Sequence record: OV754623
DNA: 64,000 nucleotides
Reading direction: 5' to 3' (one strand)
Source: Escherichia phage UGJNEcP1
In this document: one piece after another, positions 598 through 62,841 of the stretch
Layout of the letters: each line of letters begins with the position of its first letter
Position numbering within the stretch: position 1 is the first letter of the stretch
Position numbers and translations under genes: made by a program
The notes under the pieces: generated by a model
Databases searched by the model: none
The model's input: only the letters and a program-made list of their open reading frames with translations
Told to the model about the DNA's origin: nothing

Positions 598-616
598 AGG
601 GAGACCGAAGTCTCCC
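598..616 (-). terminator. intrinsic terminator hairpin with UUCG tetraloop after gene 32
   Basis: minus strand reads GGGAGAC-UUCG-GUCUCCC followed by UUUUGAG, immediately 3' of gene 32 stop. Confidence 0.6.
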
Positions 617-9598: not shown

Positions 9599-9616
9599 GG
9601 GAGACTTCGGTCTCCC
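9599..9616 (+). terminator. hairpin with UUCG tetraloop plus U-tract after gene 35
   Basis: GGGAGAC-UUCG-GUCUCCC followed by AUUUUUG on plus strand. Confidence 0.55.
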
Positions 9617-9623
9617 ATTTTTG

Positions 9624-9631
9624 TATAAATA
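9624..9631 (+). promoter_or_regulatory. T4 late promoter TATAAATA for gene 36
   Basis: exact TATAAATA 25 nt upstream of gene 36 AUG, preceded by the hairpin. Confidence 0.7.
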
Positions 9632-9655
9632 TGGTATACATATAAGGAGACAACT

Positions 9656-10321
9656 ATGGCCGATTTAAAAGCTGGTAGTACAACTGGCGGTGCTGTTATA
9701 TGGCATCAAGGTAATTTCCCTTTAATGCCGGCAGGTGATGACGTCCTGTATAAAACGTTTAAACTCTATTCAGAATATAATAAGCCACAAGCGGCTGATA
9801 ACGATTTCGTTTCTAAAGCTAATGGTGGTACGTATGCCGCTCGAGTAACATTTAATAATGGTGTGCAAGTACCTTATGCCGTAAATAACACAAATCAAAG
9901 TGGTATTTATCCTGGCAATGGCGATGCTGCTACTTTTGATACAGCAAATATTGATATTGTTTCATGGTATGGCATTGGTTTTAAATCATCACAAGGATCT
10001 GCAGGTAGAACTGTTGTTGTTAACACTCGTACTGGTGATATCAGCACTAAAGGTGGTATTTATGCAACTGGTCCTGTCCGTTCTAACGCTACTGCTCCTA
10101 TAGCAGCGAATGACCTTACTAGAAAGGACTATGTTGACGGACGAATAAATATTGTTACGGATAACGCAAATTCCCGTGTATTGCGTAAAGGCGATACCAT
10201 GACTGGTACTTTAACAGCACCAAACTTTTTCTCACAGAATCCGGCGTCTGAGGCTAATCATGTTCCTCGTTTCGACCAGATTGTAATTAAAGATTCTGTT
10301 CAAGATTTCGGCTATTATTAA
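9656..10321 (+). CDS. 36: long tail fibre distal connector gp36
   Basis: 221 aa, same as T4 gp36; SD AAGGAG upstream. Confidence 0.9.
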
Positions 10322-10329
10322 GAGGACTT

Positions 10330-13300
10330 ATGGCTACATTAAAACAGATACAATTTAAAAGAAGCAAAGTGGCAGGAGTTAATCCTACTGCAGCACAATT
10401 AGCCGAAGGCGAATTAGCGATAAACTTAAAAGATCGAACTCTTTTTACTAAAGATGACCTCGGTAATATTATTAGCCTAGGCTTTGCTAAGGGTGGGGAT
10501 ATTAACGGTAATGTAACTCAAACTGGCGATTATTTACAAAACGGCACGTATAATCTCAATGGAAATCAGTTTGTTTATGCAGGAAAATACATTGAATTTT
10601 TACCTAAAACCACTGGAAATGGCGCTTGGGCTAACCAACATTCGAATAAAGCCCCTATCTTTACAGATTTAAGTTCAACTACTTCTGTTTCAGAATACCA
10701 TCCACTGATTAAACAACGCTATAAAGATGGAACTTTTTCTGCTGGTACATTAGTAAACGAAGGTAGTTTTAAATTCCATTATATTGATGAAACCGGGACT
10801 TCAAAATACTGGACTTTTAATCGAAACGGTAATTTTCAAGTTGATTCCGGAAGTTTATTAGTATCTAATGGATATTTAGTTACTCAAAGTAATATTGAAA
10901 CTAAAGCTGGTTCTTTAATTGGTCCTAAAGTTATTACCAAAAATATCAATGTGAGCACTAAATCTTGGGACACTAATATTGATACTGCATATGATTTAGT
11001 TTCATTACCGACTTGGCAGTATACTCCAACCGAAACAGATTTGGATACTAATGGTATAAACTACCTTCGTAAATTCCGCGGACATGTTTCTTCTGCTATT
11101 TTCCATGAAGTTGCTGATGCTCGTTCAGGTAAACCACAGAATATTTCGTATTGGACAGGACGTAATGCTGAAGTTTATCAATGGTCTTATACCACAGATG
11201 GGCGTATGTCTGTTGCTAATTCGATAGGTATAGGTCTTGCTGATGTTGGTGACCAAGGACGTTATCCATTGGTTTCGTTTGGTAAAGGTATTGCAATTGG
11301 TGACAATGATACTGGTATTAAATGGGTTCGTGACGGGGTTATCGATTTAGTTGCGAATGGTATTTCTGCCGGCACTATTCTTAATAACGGTATTAACAGT
11401 ACTAAAAAATTGATGGTTGGTTATAGTCGAGATTCTGGTTCTACTTGGGATTACCCAAATAACAACCAAGCAATGTTTACTGCGCGTACCGATGTTGATG
11501 GTAATAATAACGGTGACGGTCAGACTCATATCGGTTATAGTAGCAATGCCAAGATGTATCACTATTTCCGTGGCACTGGTCGTATGTCCGTTAGTATGGG
11601 TGATGGGCTTCTTGTTGAGCCTGGCATTTTAGATATTAAAACCAGTTCAAATAGGGTTGCTATTAGAGCAGATGGTACATTTGACTCAACCCAACGTATT
11701 TCAATGCGTACTGGGTTATTTTTATCAGGTGATGACAATACCAATGCTTTGACATTTAAAGCGCCTACAGGCGTTGACGGGACAAAAACCATTAACTGGG
11801 ATGCAGGTACTCGTAATGGTCAGAATAAAAATACTGTAACCATTAAAGCATGGGGTAACTCATTTAACGCTGAAAAGGGTAATAGAGAAACTGTATTTGA
11901 AGTATCAGATTCACAAGGTTATTATTTTTATGCTCAACGTACCAACCCGGCTTCTGGTGAAACAGTAGGTCCTGTTAACTTTAAATTTAACGGAACTGTC
12001 GAAACAGGCCATATCATAGGCCTTGGTAATATAAGTGCCTCCGGTACAGGTTCTTTTGGTGGCAATGTTACCATGACTAATGGCCTGTTTGTCCAAGGTG
12101 GTTCTTCTATTACAGGCCAAGTTAAAATTGGTGGAACAGCTGATGCATTAAGAATTTGGAATGCTGAATACGGTGCTATTTTCCGTCGTTCTGAAGATAA
12201 GCTTTATATTATTCCAACCCCGCAGAATGCTGGCGAATCAGGTGGTATTTCTAATTTACGTCCGTTCTATATTACATTAAGTACCGGTAAAGTTTCTATG
12301 GACCATGATGTAGATATCGGTGGTGGAATATTTAAAGTAGAAACTAGTGGAACAACAGCAGGGAAACGTATTACAGTTAATGCGGCGTCAGATGCTATTA
12401 GAATAAATGCCCCAACGCAAGAGTCTTCTAACTTTATTCAAGGACGTAAAGCAGATGTTACAAAATGGTATTTAGGTATTGGCGATGGCGGCAACGTCGT
12501 TCGTATGCATAGTTACACCTATTCACATGGTATTGCACTGAATTCTGATACTGTCGATATTACTAAACCATTAAAAGTTGGTAATGCTCAATTCGGTACT
12601 GATGGTAATATCACTGGTGGTTCTGGTAATTTTGCTAACTTGAATACCACAATAAATAACCTTAAGACAGATATTGTCTCAAGTTATCCAATTGGTGCTC
12701 CGATTCCTTGGCCTACTGATACACCTCCTGAAGGTTATGCCATAATGGAAGGCCAGACGTTTGATACTGACTTGTATCCTAAGTTAGCTGCGGTGTATCC
12801 TTCCGGCGCTCTGCCTGATATGCGCGGTCAAACTATCAAGGGTAAACCATCCGGGCGTGCTGTATTAAGTACAGAAGCAGACGGTGTTAAGTCACATAGC
12901 CATAGTGCAAGTGCGTCAAGCACGGATTTAGGTACTAAGACCACTTCTAGTTTTGATTACGGTAGCAAAACGACTTCAAGCTTTGATTATGGTACTAAAA
13001 CCAGTAATACTACTGGTAACCATAACCATACAGTGAGTGGTAATACTAGTGCCGCTGGTAATCACCAGCACTCACAGACAGGCCCAAGAGGACCTAGTAA
13101 CCAACCGACCGGGATATTTCCTAATGGGGCTACTCTAATTAGTGGGACTCAGGTTATTAGTTTTGGCCTAAGCAACGGTATCGTGCCTGGTACAAGCCAA
13201 TATATTGCAAAGTCGTCAACAGAAGGTAACCATACCCATAGTTGGTCAGGAACTACTAGCGCTACTGGTAACCATGCCCATACGGTAGGTATTGGTGCTC

Positions 13301-13443
13301 ATACCCATTCGGTAGGTATTGGTGCTCATTCTCATACTGTTGCAATTGGTTCCCATGGGCATACAATAACTGTAAATGCCACAGGAAATACAGAAAACAC
13401 TGTTAAAAACGTTGCTTTTAACTATATCGTTCGTTTAGCATAA
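10330..13443 (+). CDS. 37: long tail fibre distal subunit gp37 with His-x-His tip motifs
   Basis: 1037 aa (T4 gp37 1026 aa); C-terminal GNHTHSWSG...[23 protein letters not shown] HxH repeats. Confidence 0.95.
12931..13002 (+). repeat. tandem 30-nt direct repeat within gene 37 encoding (T)KTTSSFDYG twice
   Basis: actaagaccacttctagttttgattacggt followed by agcaaaacgacttcaagctttgattatggt; peptide [25 protein letters not shown]. Confidence 0.7.
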
Positions 13444-13449
13444 GGAGAA

Positions 13450-13463
13450 GGGACTTCGGTCCC
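13450..13463 (+). promoter_or_regulatory. UUCG-tetraloop hairpin between the gene 38 Shine-Dalgarno and AUG (also a possible gene 37 terminator)
   Basis: AAGGAG at 13442-13447, hairpin GGGAC-UUCG-GUCCC, then UUUUUAUAAU-AUG at 13474. Confidence 0.55.
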
Positions 13464-13473
13464 TTTTTATAAT

Positions 13474-14025
13474 ATGAAACTCTATCACTATTATTTTGAC
13501 ACTAAAGAATTTTACAAAGAAGAAAATTATAAACCATTAAAAGGCGTAGGATTTCCGGCTCATTCGACACCAAAAAAACCTTTAGACCCTAAAGAAGGCT
13601 ATGCTGTTATATTTGACGAACGCGAGCAAGAATGGGTATATGTTGAAGACCATCGTGGAAAAACAGTATGGACTTATGATAAGCAAAAAATTGTTATTGA
13701 CACTCCAGGTGCTCTTCAAAATGTTACTACAGAAGAACCTGGTGAATTTGACATTTGGACCGACGACGGGTGGAAGGAAGATGAAGCATATAAACGCGTA
13801 GTTCAACGTGATAAGAAAATTCATGAACTCTATAAATTATTCAGTGTTTTAAGTTCTCTTATTGACGCAGAGGTTGCTAATAGAGAAGAAAAACGAAAAT
13901 TTAAAGAGCTCAAAAAATTCTTTGCCCTTTTAGAAAAACATGAACATCTTGGCGGCGAATTCCCTAAATTCCCTGACCTTGAAAAAAAATCTATTGTCAA
14001 AGCGATTATAAATATCTTTAAGTAA
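13474..14025 (+). CDS. 38: tail fibre assembly protein gp38 (T4-type, short form)
   Basis: 183 aa as T4 gp38; no glycine-rich T2-type adhesin segments; synteny after 37. Confidence 0.85.
   Translation: MKLYHYYFDTKEFYKEENYKPLKGVGFPAHSTPKKPLDPKEGYAVIFDEREQEWVYVEDHRGKTVWTYDKQKIVIDTPGALQNVTTEEPGEFDIWTDDGWKEDEAYKRVVQRDKKIHELYKLFSVLSSLIDAEVANREEKRKFKELKKFFALLEKHEHLGGEFPKFPDLEKKSIVKAIINIFK
14007..14014 (+). promoter_or_regulatory. T4 late promoter TATAAATA for holin gene t
   Basis: exact TATAAATA inside the 3' end of gene 38, about 20 nt upstream of t AUG. Confidence 0.65.
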
Positions 14026-17868: not shown

Positions 17869-17896
17869 TGTTTTCGTGAGAAAAAAATGCACAAAA

Positions 17897-17912
17897 GGGA
17901 GCTTCGGCTCCC
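17897..17912 (-). terminator. hairpin terminator after gene 52
   Basis: GGGAGC-loop-GCUCCC followed on the minus strand by UUUUGUGCAUUUUUUU. Confidence 0.5.
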
Positions 17913-17988
17913 TAATCATGTTTGTCTAACCAATACAGCCAAATCACTAGTGCAGCTATTGCACCGAGAAATCCTAAGGCTAGGGCAC

Positions 17989-21763: not shown

Positions 21764-21779
21764 GGGGACCGAAGTCCCC
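21764..21779 (-). terminator. UUCG-tetraloop hairpin terminator after rIIB
   Basis: minus strand GGGGAC-UUCG-GUCCCC followed by UUUUUUCUUUAG. Confidence 0.6.
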
Positions 21780-21784
21780 AATTA

Positions 21785-22732
21785 TTATTCTGCAAATAAT
21801 TCAGTAACGTCTGAAATTACTTCATAACGACATGTACGCATCTTAGCATCACCATAGTCAACTGGGATGGATACAACATCACGTGGATGAACTTTAACCT
21901 TAACAACTTTATCTGAGCTAGAACCAAAGTAACGAATATATGATTTAGCACAAACGTGGAGACCGCGAGAACAGGTTTGTGTATCATCGTCGTTAACTCG
22001 AGTACGAGGCATTGAAACAACTTTACCAGGCGAGTTATCAAATGTGCCACTATAGCAATCTAAATAGTCTTTACGAACTACTTTCCATGCATAGAAATAC
22101 CCATCTTCAGTGATTTCAATATCGTTTGCAACCAAGAAGTCGAATAAACGTTGTACAGCTTTTTCGCTTGGGTTTTCTAACAGGTTTTCAAGGAATGGCA
22201 GATAGAATTTAAAGTCTTCACCTTTTTCCATGGAATCAATAATACGGTTAACCAGCCCTGAACGAATCTCTATACCTTGATAAAATAAACTACCACCTTC
22301 AATAGTAACATTACCGTCAACAAACTTACTAATAGCTTTCTTGATGTTAATAAGTTCGACAGCTTTACTAAGGTTTCCTGCGACCAAATTAGCTTTAATT
22401 TCTTCAAAATTTGCATGACTTGATGGGGTCGCATTGTATGCTACGCGTCCTTCAATGATTGAAATAAATTTAGATGACGCGTTCCATATGATTTCAGGAC
22501 GATGTCCGCCGATAATAGGTTCATCATTTTCTGGAACTTCTTCGATTACATAAGAGGCATCGTTTGCTTCAGGGACAACGCCTTCAGCTTTAAAATTCTT
22601 AACAATCTTACGAAGAGTATCTGTTGAAATGTCGAAGTAATCGGCAATTTCTTTACGAGTCCATTTGCCTGATTCAACCAGGCCGTAAGCTTCTAACTGT
22701 TCTTCTTGGGACAAGCATTTGATATTGTACAT
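21785..22732 (-). CDS. rIIB: rIIB protein
   Basis: 315 aa; MYNIKCL..., IIWNAS.KFISI, GGSLFYQ.IE.RSGLV.RI.DSMEKGE.F.FY.PFLENLLENPS.KAV.RLFDFLVANDIEITEDGYFYAWKVVR match T4 rIIB as recalled. Confidence 0.95.
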   Translation of the reverse strand: MYNIKCLSQEEQLEAYGLVESGKWTRKEIADYFDISTDTLRKIVKNFKAEGVVPEANDASYVIEEVPENDEPIIGGHRPEIIWNASSKFISIIEGRVAYNATPSSHANFEEIKANLVAGNLSKAVELINIKKAISKFVDGNVTIEGGSLFYQGIEIRSGLVNRIIDSMEKGEDFKFYLPFLENLLENPSEKAVQRLFDFLVANDIEITEDGYFYAWKVVRKDYLDCYSGTFDNSPGKVVSMPRTRVNDDDTQTCSRGLHVCAKSYIRYFGSSSDKVVKVKVHPRDVVSIPVDYGDAKMRTCRYEVISDVTELFAE

Positions 22733-28221: not shown

Positions 28222-28271
28222 GTTGTCTCCTCGTTATGAAGGTATTCTATCATCCGAAATCTAAAGCAAAA

Positions 28272-28285
28272 AGGGCCGAAGCCCT
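28272..28285 (-). terminator. UUCG-tetraloop hairpin terminator
   Basis: minus strand AGGGC-UUCG-GCCCU followed by UUUUUGCUUUAG. Confidence 0.5.
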
Positions 28286-28728
28286 TATTTAAATTTAATT
28301 TTCTGAAGTGCATCAATTGCAGCTAAACGCCCTTGTTCACTTTTAACTGTAATGACCACATCGCCTGATACGATCACCGAACCATCAACAAATTCTATAG
28401 AGCCTTTTTTGAAATCGACAGCTGTATCTGGTTCCGGAACTTCTTCAAAGAATTTAAATTCTGCACCATAAATCAGAATATCACCTTGCATACTAATGAT
28501 TGTACGTCTAGGTCCATCGGTTTCAGCGGCAATCATTGAAACACCATAACCAATCATCTCTTCTACAATAAAATCTCTTGATAATAAAACTGTATGCAGA
28601 GTAGTGTTAAGACGTTTACCAGTTGTATTAAGAATTCTCAAGAAATTATCTTCTTGACCTTTGATAATACGATATTTCTTACCAACTTCAAAACCTTTAA
28701 AACCTTTAAAAGCCGTATTAAAAGCCAT
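28285..28728 (-). CDS. hypothetical protein (goF/39.x region)
   Basis: 147-aa ORF; no motif recognised. Confidence 0.45.
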   Translation of the reverse strand: MAFNTAFKGFKGFEVGKKYRIIKGQEDNFLRILNTTGKRLNTTLHTVLLSRDFIVEEMIGYGVSMIAAETDGPRRTIISMQGDILIYGAEFKFFEEVPEPDTAVDFKKGSIEFVDGSVIVSGDVVITVKSEQGRLAAIDALQKIKFK

Positions 28729-37634: not shown

Positions 37635-37712
37635 ATTGTTCTCCTCTTGAGTAAGTAAGAATATCTTAACACAGTTTTTAGCGGTTGTAAACTGTAGAAA
37701 CAAAAAAAAAAA

Positions 37713-37730
37713 GGAATCCCGAAGGATTCC
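37713..37730 (-). terminator. UUCG-tetraloop hairpin terminator after soc
   Basis: minus strand GGAAUCC-UUCG-GGAUUCC followed by a run of 11 U. Confidence 0.7.
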
Positions 37731-37738
37731 TAAATTAT

Positions 37739-43470: not shown

Positions 43471-43535
43471 AATGTTTTCCTCTTGGTTTGTGTAAGTGCA
43501 TCATATCATGCCTAGAGGAAGATGTAAACCCCGAA

Positions 43536-43553
43536 AGGAGACCGAAGTCTCCT
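43536..43553 (-). terminator. tetraloop hairpin after gene 41
   Basis: AGGAGAC-loop-GUCUCCU; U-tract on the plus side, GTTTAC promoter element follows on the minus side. Confidence 0.4.
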
Positions 43554-43558
43554 TTTTA

Positions 43559-45010: not shown

Positions 45011-45373
45011 TTAAAAGAATTTAAATTTTTTCTTGGCCCGTTCATTAAAAGCTTGTTGTACTTGCATTGTAACACATTTTTCAACATGTGGTGCAAGTTC
45101 TGCTTTTCTGTCCTGGTCAAGAACTGCAAAGTCCATTACGATTTTACCATCAACCCAGTCTAGTTTTGTAATATAGACTATATGATGGGAACCATCTTCA
45201 AGTGTAATCAGAATCTCTTGAATGACATTTTCCATTGCTGAACGGATAATTTTAAGAGATTCATTAAACACTCGTTCTTTGCGAATGTCTTCCCCTTCCG
45301 AAGAAGGGGATTCATCAACGATTTCTAGATTTAAATCATCGAGATTATTCATCGAAATCTTCCATTTCGTCAA
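45011..45373 (-). CDS. 40: gp40 candidate (head vertex assembly chaperone)
   Basis: 120 aa (T4 gp40 114 aa); synteny between 41 and uvsX. Confidence 0.55.
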   Translation of the reverse strand: MTKWKISMNNLDDLNLEIVDESPSSEGEDIRKERVFNESLKIIRSAMENVIQEILITLEDGSHHIVYITKLDWVDGKIVMDFAVLDQDRKAELAPHVEKCVTMQVQQAFNERAKKKFKFF

Positions 45374-62610: not shown

Positions 62611-62628
62611 AGGAACTCCGAAGAGTTC
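62611..62628 (-). terminator. UUCG-tetraloop hairpin terminator upstream of gene 47
   Basis: minus strand GGAACUC-UUCG-GAGUUCC followed by UUUUUUGC. Confidence 0.6.
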
Positions 62629-62841
62629 CTATCCACATAGTACACCATACAGAGGCTCATTTGAACTTTTAAATCGAATGGGCTTGTATGTAATAGTTCC
62701 TTCGGCTTTAGCTTTATCATAAGACTCTTTAAAACGTCTCATTCTTTCTGCTTTGCCTTTACGGATTTTATCGAAATTTTCAGAAGTCGGGATGTTCGTC
62801 ATGCATAAGCACCTCTCAGAAAATGCCTAAATCAATTTCTC

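Follow-up and report, generated by a model that had tools for sequence, protein, structure and literature searches.

The closest described system is the ribosome-binding site of T4 gene 38, where the 22 nt that separate the Shine-Dalgarno sequence (SD) from the AUG are cut to 5 nt by an intervening structure (PMC3014915). The same review describes gene 25 of T4, where an intervening stem-loop cuts 27 nt to 11 nt and where the enhancing role of the structure was shown with lacZ fusions together with DMS probing (PMC3014915). Destabilising mutations are stated to lower initiation, with reference to the work of Nivinskas et al. 1999 and of Malys and Nivinskas 2009; the mutational work behind this statement was apparently done on gene 25, whose split site is restricted to close T-even phages and is absent in distant relatives (PMC3014915). 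Our literature search, for which the primary T4 papers were out of reach, found no direct mutational data for gene 38. In the T4 reference (NC_000866) the junction reads TAAGGAG-A-GGGGC-TTCG-GCCCT-TCTAAAT-ATG, with a gap of 22 nt. The initial annotation of the DNA analyzed here had pointed to T4 gene 38 as a known split site, which agrees with both the spacing given in the review and the layout of the T4 sequence.

The window is the whole 64,000-nucleotide stretch of the T4-like Escherichia phage UGJNEcP1 (sequence record OV754623). This locus, the ortholog of the T4 gene 37/38 junction with the synteny 35-36-37-38-t, shows 100% identity to that of Escherichia phage UGJNEcP2 and ∼83% identity to that of T4. 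The junction has the following features.

10330..13443, + strand: gene 37, long tail fibre distal subunit, an ORF of 1037 aa with its TAA stop at 13441-13443
13442-13447, + strand: SD, AAGGAG, which shares its first two bases with the end of the gene 37 TAA stop
13445..13468, + strand: optional 10-bp form of the hairpin, found in the MFE and ensemble folds, in which GAG of the SD pairs with UUU
13448..13465, + strand: hairpin AAGGGAC-UUCG-GUCCCUU, 7 bp with a C(UUCG)G loop at 13455-13458, abutting the SD
13448-13449, 13450-13454, 13455-13458 and 13459-13463, + strand: AA, GGGAC, TTCG and GTCCC, respectively
13464..13473, + strand: U-rich tail UUUUUAUAAU, made up of TTTTT (13464-13468) and ATAAT (13469-13473)
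13474..14025, + strand: gene 38, T4-type tail fibre assembly chaperone, an ORF of 183 aa with its ATG at 13474-13476

The gene 37 product matches Pfam gp37_trimer and Collar, and matching phage records annotate the upstream ORF as gp37. The gene 38 product is 67% identical to T4 gp38 and matches Pfam Caudo_TAP. Its N-terminus, MK[IL]YHY, is kept in relatives as far away as CkP1 and Moon, and this conservation among distant relatives fixes the gene 38 start codon. On the opposite strand across the site the ORF listing holds no ORF of at least 40 aa. A search of Rfam with both strands returned just sub-threshold chance matches to snoRNA and pistol models (E of at least 1), and the hairpin is covered by no curated family.

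Read from 13440 to 13476, the junction is at-AAGGAG-AA-GGGAC-TTCG-GTCCC-TTTTT-ATAAT-ATG. The gap from the last G of AAGGAG to the A of the ATG (13474) is exactly 26 nt, as the initial annotation had stated in placing this SD beyond standard spacing, and the 14-nt GGGAC-UUCG-GUCCC that it had placed between SD and AUG is found there base for base, as the GC-rich core at 13450-13463. We surveyed SD spacing by locating GGAG or GAGG within 45 nt upstream of non-overlapping window ORFs. The spacing was 1–13 nt in 38 of 44 such ORFs, with a peak at 5–9 nt, and at least 23 nt in the remaining six, five of which have a nearer purine-rich motif (AGGA, GAG, TAAGG or AAGAG). Gene 38 is an outlier in this set and the sole window ORF whose only SD-like motif lies >20 nt upstream; between the hairpin and its ATG there is no nearer SD-like motif, the preceding 10 nt being UUUUUAUAAU. 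Four nt separate the gene 37 stop from the 7-bp stem, and 8 nt (13466-13473) remain as spacer between the base of that stem and the AUG.

Folding of positions 13425-13500 yielded −16.5 kcal/mol (z = −2.05), with the MFE and centroid structures both holding an extended hairpin. The 14-nt core alone contributes −7.5 kcal/mol. Pairs A13448-U13465 and A13449-U13464 lengthen the stem to 7 bp and −10.0 kcal/mol, and the weak pairs G13445.U13468, A13446-U13467 and G13447.U13466 produce the 10-bp form at −13.2 kcal/mol. In the ensemble the core stem has a pairing probability of ∼1, and the 10-bp extension is also predicted to be paired. Counting only the 14-nt core as paired leaves 12 unpaired nt before the AUG; the 7-bp stem shortens this to 8 nt and the 10-bp form to 5 nt. 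The proposal that the hairpin brings the spacing to a functional distance therefore holds for the 7-bp stem but not for the core alone, which leaves 12 nt. Freeing AAGGAG costs ∼4.3 kcal/mol compared with about −9.0 kcal/mol for the SD:anti-SD duplex, so the 30S subunit should win the SD while the 7-bp stem is still folded. According to the same folding model, the weak 10-bp extension would compete with ribosome binding. Half of the SD is paired in the predicted fold, which speaks against bridging. Loop energies in ViennaRNA gave no advantage of UUCG over UUCU; we give this no weight, since such parameters poorly represent the unusual stability that C(UUCG)G is known from experiment to have.

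We consider it probable that gene 38 has a split ribosome-binding site and that, of the 26 nt between SD and AUG, 18 are looped out by the 7-bp C(UUCG)G hairpin. Gene 38 would be translated from a polycistronic late mRNA running through gene 37, and the hairpin (7 bp plus loop, 18 nt) would leave 8 nt, so that SD and AUG come within reach of one 30S subunit. Pairing with the anti-SD would displace the three weak pairs that cover GAG of the SD. This interpretation is supported by orthology with T4, by constrained geometry, by covariation and by the energetics. The data show the anatomy, its conservation and covariation, the constrained distances and the lack of a promoter for gene 38; from these we infer that gp38 translation needs the folded hairpin, and likewise the roles proposed for the hairpin at gene ends.

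An 86-nt junction query recovered 208 phage records, 100 at ≥95% identity and 108 at 80–90%, which we took, by identity alone, as window type and T4 type, respectively. Junction diversity was drawn from the GenBank phage collection, and the split-type junctions fall into the following forms.

T4 reference: stem-loop GGGGC-UUCG-GCCC(U), tail UCUAAAU, gap 22 nt
Most T4-type phages: GGGGC-UUCG-GCCCC, tail UUCUAAAU, gap 23 nt
VR7, VR25 and PTE-Eco15: GGGGC-UUCG-GCCCC, tail UUCUGAAU, gap 23 nt
DCP80: GGGGC-UUCG-GCCCC, tail UUUUGAAU, gap 23 nt
slur08: GGGGC-UUCG-GCCCC, tail UUUUUAUAAU, gap 25 nt
Window type: GGGAC-UUCG-GUCCC, tail UUUUUAUAAU, gap 26 nt
SA79RD, ST0, ECCR664 and one IMG/VR contig: GGGAC-UUCU-GUCCC, tail UUUU(U)AUAAU, gap 25–26 nt

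In every split-type variant the stem abuts the SD and 5–8 nt lie between the last base of the 7-bp stem and the AUG, a spacing that is held although the split-type tails vary (TTCTAAAT, TTCTGAAT, TTTTGAAT, TTTTTATAAT, TTTTATAAT). The bridging model calls for just this contact between stem and SD and this short distance to the AUG. As the variants with a UUCU loop show, the identity of the tetraloop counts for less than the stem. Across the T4-type junctions sampled (about 15 distinct sequences) TAAGGAGA is invariant. Searches of IMG/VR by protein and by DNA pattern gave two loci and a metagenome scan gave four, all of the latter being of the T4 type or window type already met.

A GC-rich hairpin lies just after the gene 37 stop in all Tevenvirinae 37/38 junctions sampled. 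Outside the T4-type clade the order is stop, hairpin, SD, 5–7 nt, ATG, as seen in CkP1, Moon, RB69, RB5 and JS98 and also in CGG4-1, PG7, VPA32 and IME339. CkP1 and Moon carry homologues of the gp38 chaperone, that of CkP1 being 37% identical to the window protein and that of Moon 39% identical to that of CkP1. The same downstream-SD order is found in phages whose gp38 is an unrelated adhesin of the T2 type and whose gp37 ends in a different C-terminus. These junctions read as follows.

CkP1 (Citrobacter, Karamvirus): TAA-ttta-GGGCC-TTCG-GGCCC-tt-GGAG-aaaat-ATG, SD 5 nt from the ATG
Moon (Citrobacter, Moonvirus): TAA-tagatt-GGGGC-TTCG-GCCCC-tct-GAGG-aaact-ATG, SD 5 nt from the ATG
RB69 (T2-type): GAGGGGC-TTCG-GCCCCTT-GGAGG-tgtat
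RB5 (T2-type): GGGGG-AAATG-CCCCC ... GGAG
JS98 (T2-type): AGGGCC-CTCG-GGCCCT-GGAGG
CGG4-1, PG7 and VPA32 (T2-type): AGGGCC-TTCG-GGCCCT
IME339 (T2-type): AGAGGGC-TTCG-GCCCTCT-AAGGA

In a loop-anchored alignment of 15 distinct junction hairpins, which represent roughly 3–4 independent events, 94.3% of stem cells are paired compared with 85.5% in shuffles, and the covariation score is 0.32 compared with 0.14; none of 500 shuffles reached the observed value in either case. Sliding the 3′ partner by 1–3 columns lowers pairing to 26–71%. Stem position 4 is G-C in eight hairpins, C-G in four and A-U in three, with no unpaired cases. The alignment indicates that the stem is maintained by selection through compensatory changes, few of them independent. 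The hairpin is not only a spacing device, being conserved after gene 37 in phages whose SD lies downstream at normal spacing and belonging to a class of gene-end UUCG hairpins found across the window. Because the hairpin is equally conserved where spacing needs none, its conservation alone does not support bridging.

The window as a whole is rich in such elements. With stems of at least 4 bp it contains 19 UUCG hairpins compared with 2.3 ± 1.5 in shuffles, a roughly eight-fold enrichment, and with stems of at least 5 bp it contains 14, compared with ∼0.9 for an average tetraloop. Eleven of these 14 begin −2 to +14 nt from a same-strand ORF stop codon. One sister from this hairpin census, together with the two copies of the T4 late-promoter consensus that bear on transcription of gene 38, is placed as follows.

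9599..9616, + strand: sister hairpin GGGAGAC-UUCG-GUCUCCC, 5 nt after the gene 35 stop
9624..9631, + strand: TATAAATA, T4 late-promoter consensus, before gene 36 and just after the sister hairpin
14007..14014, + strand: TATAAATA, inside the 3′ end of gene 38, putatively serving holin gene t

The sister hairpin at 9599-9616 is followed by TATAAATA and then by the gene 36 SD. The 37/38 hairpin is the sole window member with a 5′ SD and with the next ATG 8 nt after its stem; the other UUCG hairpins lie 20–109 nt from the next ATG, with the SD after the hairpin where the flank was inspected (for example at 9599, 21764 and 26388). Intercistronic C(UUCG)G hairpins of T4 were reportedly described by Tuerk and colleagues in 1988. 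A C-G-closed UUCG loop, a GC-rich stem and a position directly after the stop codon are shared by those elements and the 37/38 hairpin; some close relatives carry UUCU instead.

The presence of the hairpin after gene 37 throughout, combined with its place in a gene-end class, indicates an ancestral gene-end element and a derived split layout. The hairpin predates the split layout: the ancestral order is stop, hairpin, SD, AUG, and the T4-type clade has its SD on the 5′ side of the hairpin. A role in protecting mRNA 3′ ends can reasonably be inferred from the position directly after stop codons, and the likely roles of the hairpin would be 3′-end stabilization or, with a U-tract, partial termination. 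We tentatively propose, at somewhat less than even odds, that the hairpin is ancestral Tevenvirinae gene-end punctuation, that the split site is secondary, and that in the variant with a U5 tail one hairpin does two jobs. If this is true, the hairpin would partly terminate or stabilize gene 37 transcripts and would license gene 38 translation on those that read through, and the two jobs together would set a low gp38:gp37 ratio.

These comparisons bear on whether the arrangement could be a chance juxtaposition, with AAGGAG fortuitous, the hairpin irrelevant and gene 38 initiating without an SD. The gene 38 ATG is preceded by 10 A/U-rich nt (UUUUUAUAAU), and A/U-rich sequence in front of a start codon can support SD-independent initiation. 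Against this stand the invariance of TAAGGAGA among the T4-type junctions, the occurrence of the layout in the 208 records, the covariation of the stem and the enrichment of UUCG hairpins. Moreover, relatives with the hairpin upstream of the SD all have a canonical SD, which argues that gene 38 normally uses one. Coincidence is the least credible of the explanations that we considered, and we give it hardly any weight.

The window tail is U5 after a GC-rich hairpin, which looks like a weak intrinsic terminator, and others have annotated a terminator here, in MM02 as such and in G2469 as putative, with a value of −11.8. U-runs also follow most of the sister hairpins in the window. An efficient intrinsic terminator at this site would end the gene 36-37 transcript, leaving gene 38 to a separate unrecognized promoter. 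The TATAAATA motif at 9624 is, judging from its match to the consensus, the nearest upstream motif that could drive genes 36-37-38, and the equivalent of the element at 14007 is annotated as a T4-late promoter in the SA79RD record; the count of TATAAATA in the window is not above chance. A pattern search of the + strand found no TATAAATA in 9632-14006, and thus none between genes 37 and 38 or between the hairpin and the ATG. We tried TATAATAT in the window tail as a late promoter and rejected it, as it has three mismatches to TATAAATA and would place the start site inside the coding region. The distance of 8–10 nt from hairpin to ATG is in any case too short for a promoter plus leader. As gene 38 has no late promoter of its own, its transcripts must cross the hairpin, which makes termination partial at most.

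The U-tract, in addition, is not conserved with the hairpin: the T4-type tail is UUCUAAAU, RB69 has UUGGAGG, and JS98 and CGG4-1 have GGAGG directly after the stem. With the hairpin kept in junctions that lack the U-tract, termination cannot be what it is conserved for. Tail-fibre assembly needs gp38, so the protein must be made, which also counts against an efficient terminator. A simple terminator scan did not call the hairpin either; this miss probably arose because greedy stem extension, with G-T pairs allowed, consumes the T-run, and we did not count it against terminator activity. We regard an efficient terminator combined with a separate gene 38 promoter as very improbable. The attenuator role that the initial annotation had suggested, partial at most, is plausible for the U5-tailed window variant. 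A literature search for 3′-end mapping of T4 transcripts found nothing usable.

The main rival to a split site bridged by the hairpin is reinitiation after gene 37. In this explanation the hairpin would be only a gene-end element (stabilizer or attenuator), and gene 38 would be translated mainly by termination-reinitiation, with ribosomes ending at the UAA (13441-13443), being retained by AAGGAG and restarting at the AUG 30 nt downstream. Coupling or reinitiation could contribute, given that a ribosome terminating on gene 37 covers both the SD and the hairpin's 5′ arm. The overlap of the SD with the gene 37 stop codon, the conservation of the hairpin wherever the SD sits and the coupled TAATG overlap of the homologous lambda stf/tfa junction all favor reinitiation. 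The gene 37 TAA and the gene 38 ATG are themselves separated by a 30-nt gap, and the overlapping stop/start of coupled genes is not found here. A further hint of reinitiation comes from Lv5cm, whose junction appears to contain a 77-nt duplication and in which an apparent full-length gene 38 copy follows the stop of an 18-codon ORF and a hairpin but lacks an SD. If real, this copy suggests that gp38 can be made without the split SD and that reinitiation across the hairpin can replace the SD, but it may be an assembly artefact. A hairpin of −10 kcal/mol would also re-form and obstruct scanning, and the contact of stem and SD and the 5–8 nt from stem to AUG in all split-type variants are as bridging expects. 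The T4 literature, too, reads the site as SD-dependent with structural bridging (PMC3014915). We therefore judge reinitiation as the principal route to gp38 to be unlikely, while giving it appreciably more weight than a terminator with a separate promoter.

Taken together, the split ribosome-binding site bridged by the hairpin mainly confirms that a textbook exception to SD spacing also occurs in a T4 relative, where selection maintains it. The analysis adds, modestly, that the hairpin is universal after gene 37 and that the SD may lie on either side of it. The T4-type junctions and those of the CkP1, Moon or RB69 type constitute natural paired designs for asking how far a folded helix is tolerated within a ribosome-binding site. 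Describing the site is useful for annotation, since the labels given to it by gene callers and terminator predictors disagree, and in the engineering of tail-fibre cassettes an altered 37/38 junction could silently lose gp38 expression.

Compared with the known systems, the window site shares with T4 gene 38 its orthologous position, a TAAGGAG that overlaps the stop codon, a C(UUCG)G hairpin that abuts the SD and a short A/U-rich spacer. Its gap of 26 nt is longer than that of the T4 reference (22 nt) and of most T4-type relatives (23 nt), and it has one more A before the stem. The stem itself is GGGAC/GUCCC in the window and GGGGC/GCCC(C) in T4, a compensatory change of G-C to A-U, and the window tail (UUUUUAUAAU) is more terminator-like than that of T4 (UUCUAAAU). 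With the 7-bp stem the residual spacing in the window is 8 nt, whereas the published value for T4 is 5 nt. The T4 gene 25 site works by the same principle as that of gene 38 but lies at another junction (26/25) and has an unrelated sequence. As for lambda, the DNA at the end of gene 37 matches that at the end of stf with 72.5% identity, up to the stop codon, and both lambda Tfa and the window gp38 are Caudo_TAP proteins. Unlike the 37/38 junction, however, lambda stf and tfa are joined by the overlapping TAATG with neither a hairpin nor a separate SD spacer; the hairpin is a feature of the T-even junction. The window site is nothing new in kind, being a common allele of the feature known from T4.

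C(UUCG)G hairpins are approximately eight-fold enriched in the window, where 19 are observed against 2.3 expected. Examples from the hairpin census, together with one 9-bp hairpin, are listed below.

UUCG hairpins in the window (coordinates, strand, description)
599-616, minus strand, C(UUCG)G hairpin
9599-9616, plus strand, C(UUCG)G hairpin
21764-21779, minus strand, C(UUCG)G hairpin
28271-28286, minus strand, C(UUCG)G hairpin
37712-37731, minus strand, C(UUCG)G hairpin
62611-62630, minus strand, C(UUCG)G hairpin
43534-43555, minus strand, 9-bp hairpin AAAGGAGAC-UUCG-GUCUCCUUU, 3 nt past a stop codon

When only UUCG hairpins with a stem of at least 5 bp are considered, 11 of 14 lie between -2 and +14 nt from a same-strand stop codon, and the C(UUCG)G hairpins look like a genome-wide punctuation system at gene ends. 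Two strong UUCG hairpins, at 45291-45310 (minus strand) and 17896-17913 (plus strand), are exceptions to this pattern; one of them, of 8 bp, is located within a long ORF, and no ORF on the same strand lies within 150 nt of the other, which has 7 bp. As regards the 9-bp hairpin, its 5' arm is AAGGAG itself, with this SD-like motif wholly sequestered within the stem and 63 nt separating the hairpin from the next ATG.

Close relatives of the window carry a natural loop variant at the gene 37/38 junction. In SA79RD (retrieved sequence L022), ST0 (L010), ECCR664 (L021) and IMG/VR contig 3300030021_000020 (L003) the hairpin reads GGGAC-UUCU-GUCCC, such that the special UUCG tetraloop is gone and the stem retained, indicating that loop identity is dispensable in nature. 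The T4 reference (NC_000866; L001 753-766) has a 3' arm of GCCC-T, which is one C shorter than in most T4-type relatives (GCCCC-T in L012, L006 and L009, against which the comparison was made). The missing C leaves a gap of 22 nt rather than 23 nt and turns one stem pair into G.U.

Salmonella phage Lv5cm (MZ150757; L013 451-604) carries a 77-nt segment perfectly duplicated in tandem (2.0 copies matching at 100%), and this repeat unit takes in the hairpin together with codons 1-18 of gene 38. Copy 1 retains AAGGAG and its reading frame is closed by TAG after 18 codons; copy 2 is the full-length gene 38, which has the hairpin and lacks the SD. Either this duplication is an assembly artefact, or gp38 is naturally synthesized there via reinitiation across the hairpin.

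In the window the gene 38 ATG is in frame with the gene 37 stop codon 33 nt away, and no further stop codon occurs between them in this shared frame (13441-13476). UAA read-through would yield a gp37-gp38 fusion. Unlike the window, the T4 reference has an out-of-frame offset of 29 nt, which argues that the shared frame is probably incidental.

The T2-type junctions of RB69 (L027 4357-4387) and IME339 (L033) contain an SD-like AAGAGG partly within the hairpin 5' arm, besides a canonical SD 3' of the hairpin. They look like possible intermediates between the SD-5' and SD-3' layouts. The 18-nt string GAGGGGCTTCGGCCCCTT is common to RB69 and T4-type phages. In Enterobacter phage PG7 (KJ101592; L031 177-233) the TTG annotated as the gene 38 start is probably a misassignment; 18 nt further upstream lies an ATG preceded by hairpin-aGAGGA-tttttat, the same layout that precedes the gene 38 ATG of VPA32.

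Lambda stf (NC_001416) shares 72.5% DNA similarity with the 3' end of the window's gene 37. This similarity extends exactly to the stop codon (L017 536-540; lambda 21971-21975), with none beyond. The 37/38 junction marks a module boundary, past which lambda has TAATG coupling whereas T-even phages have an SD and a hairpin.
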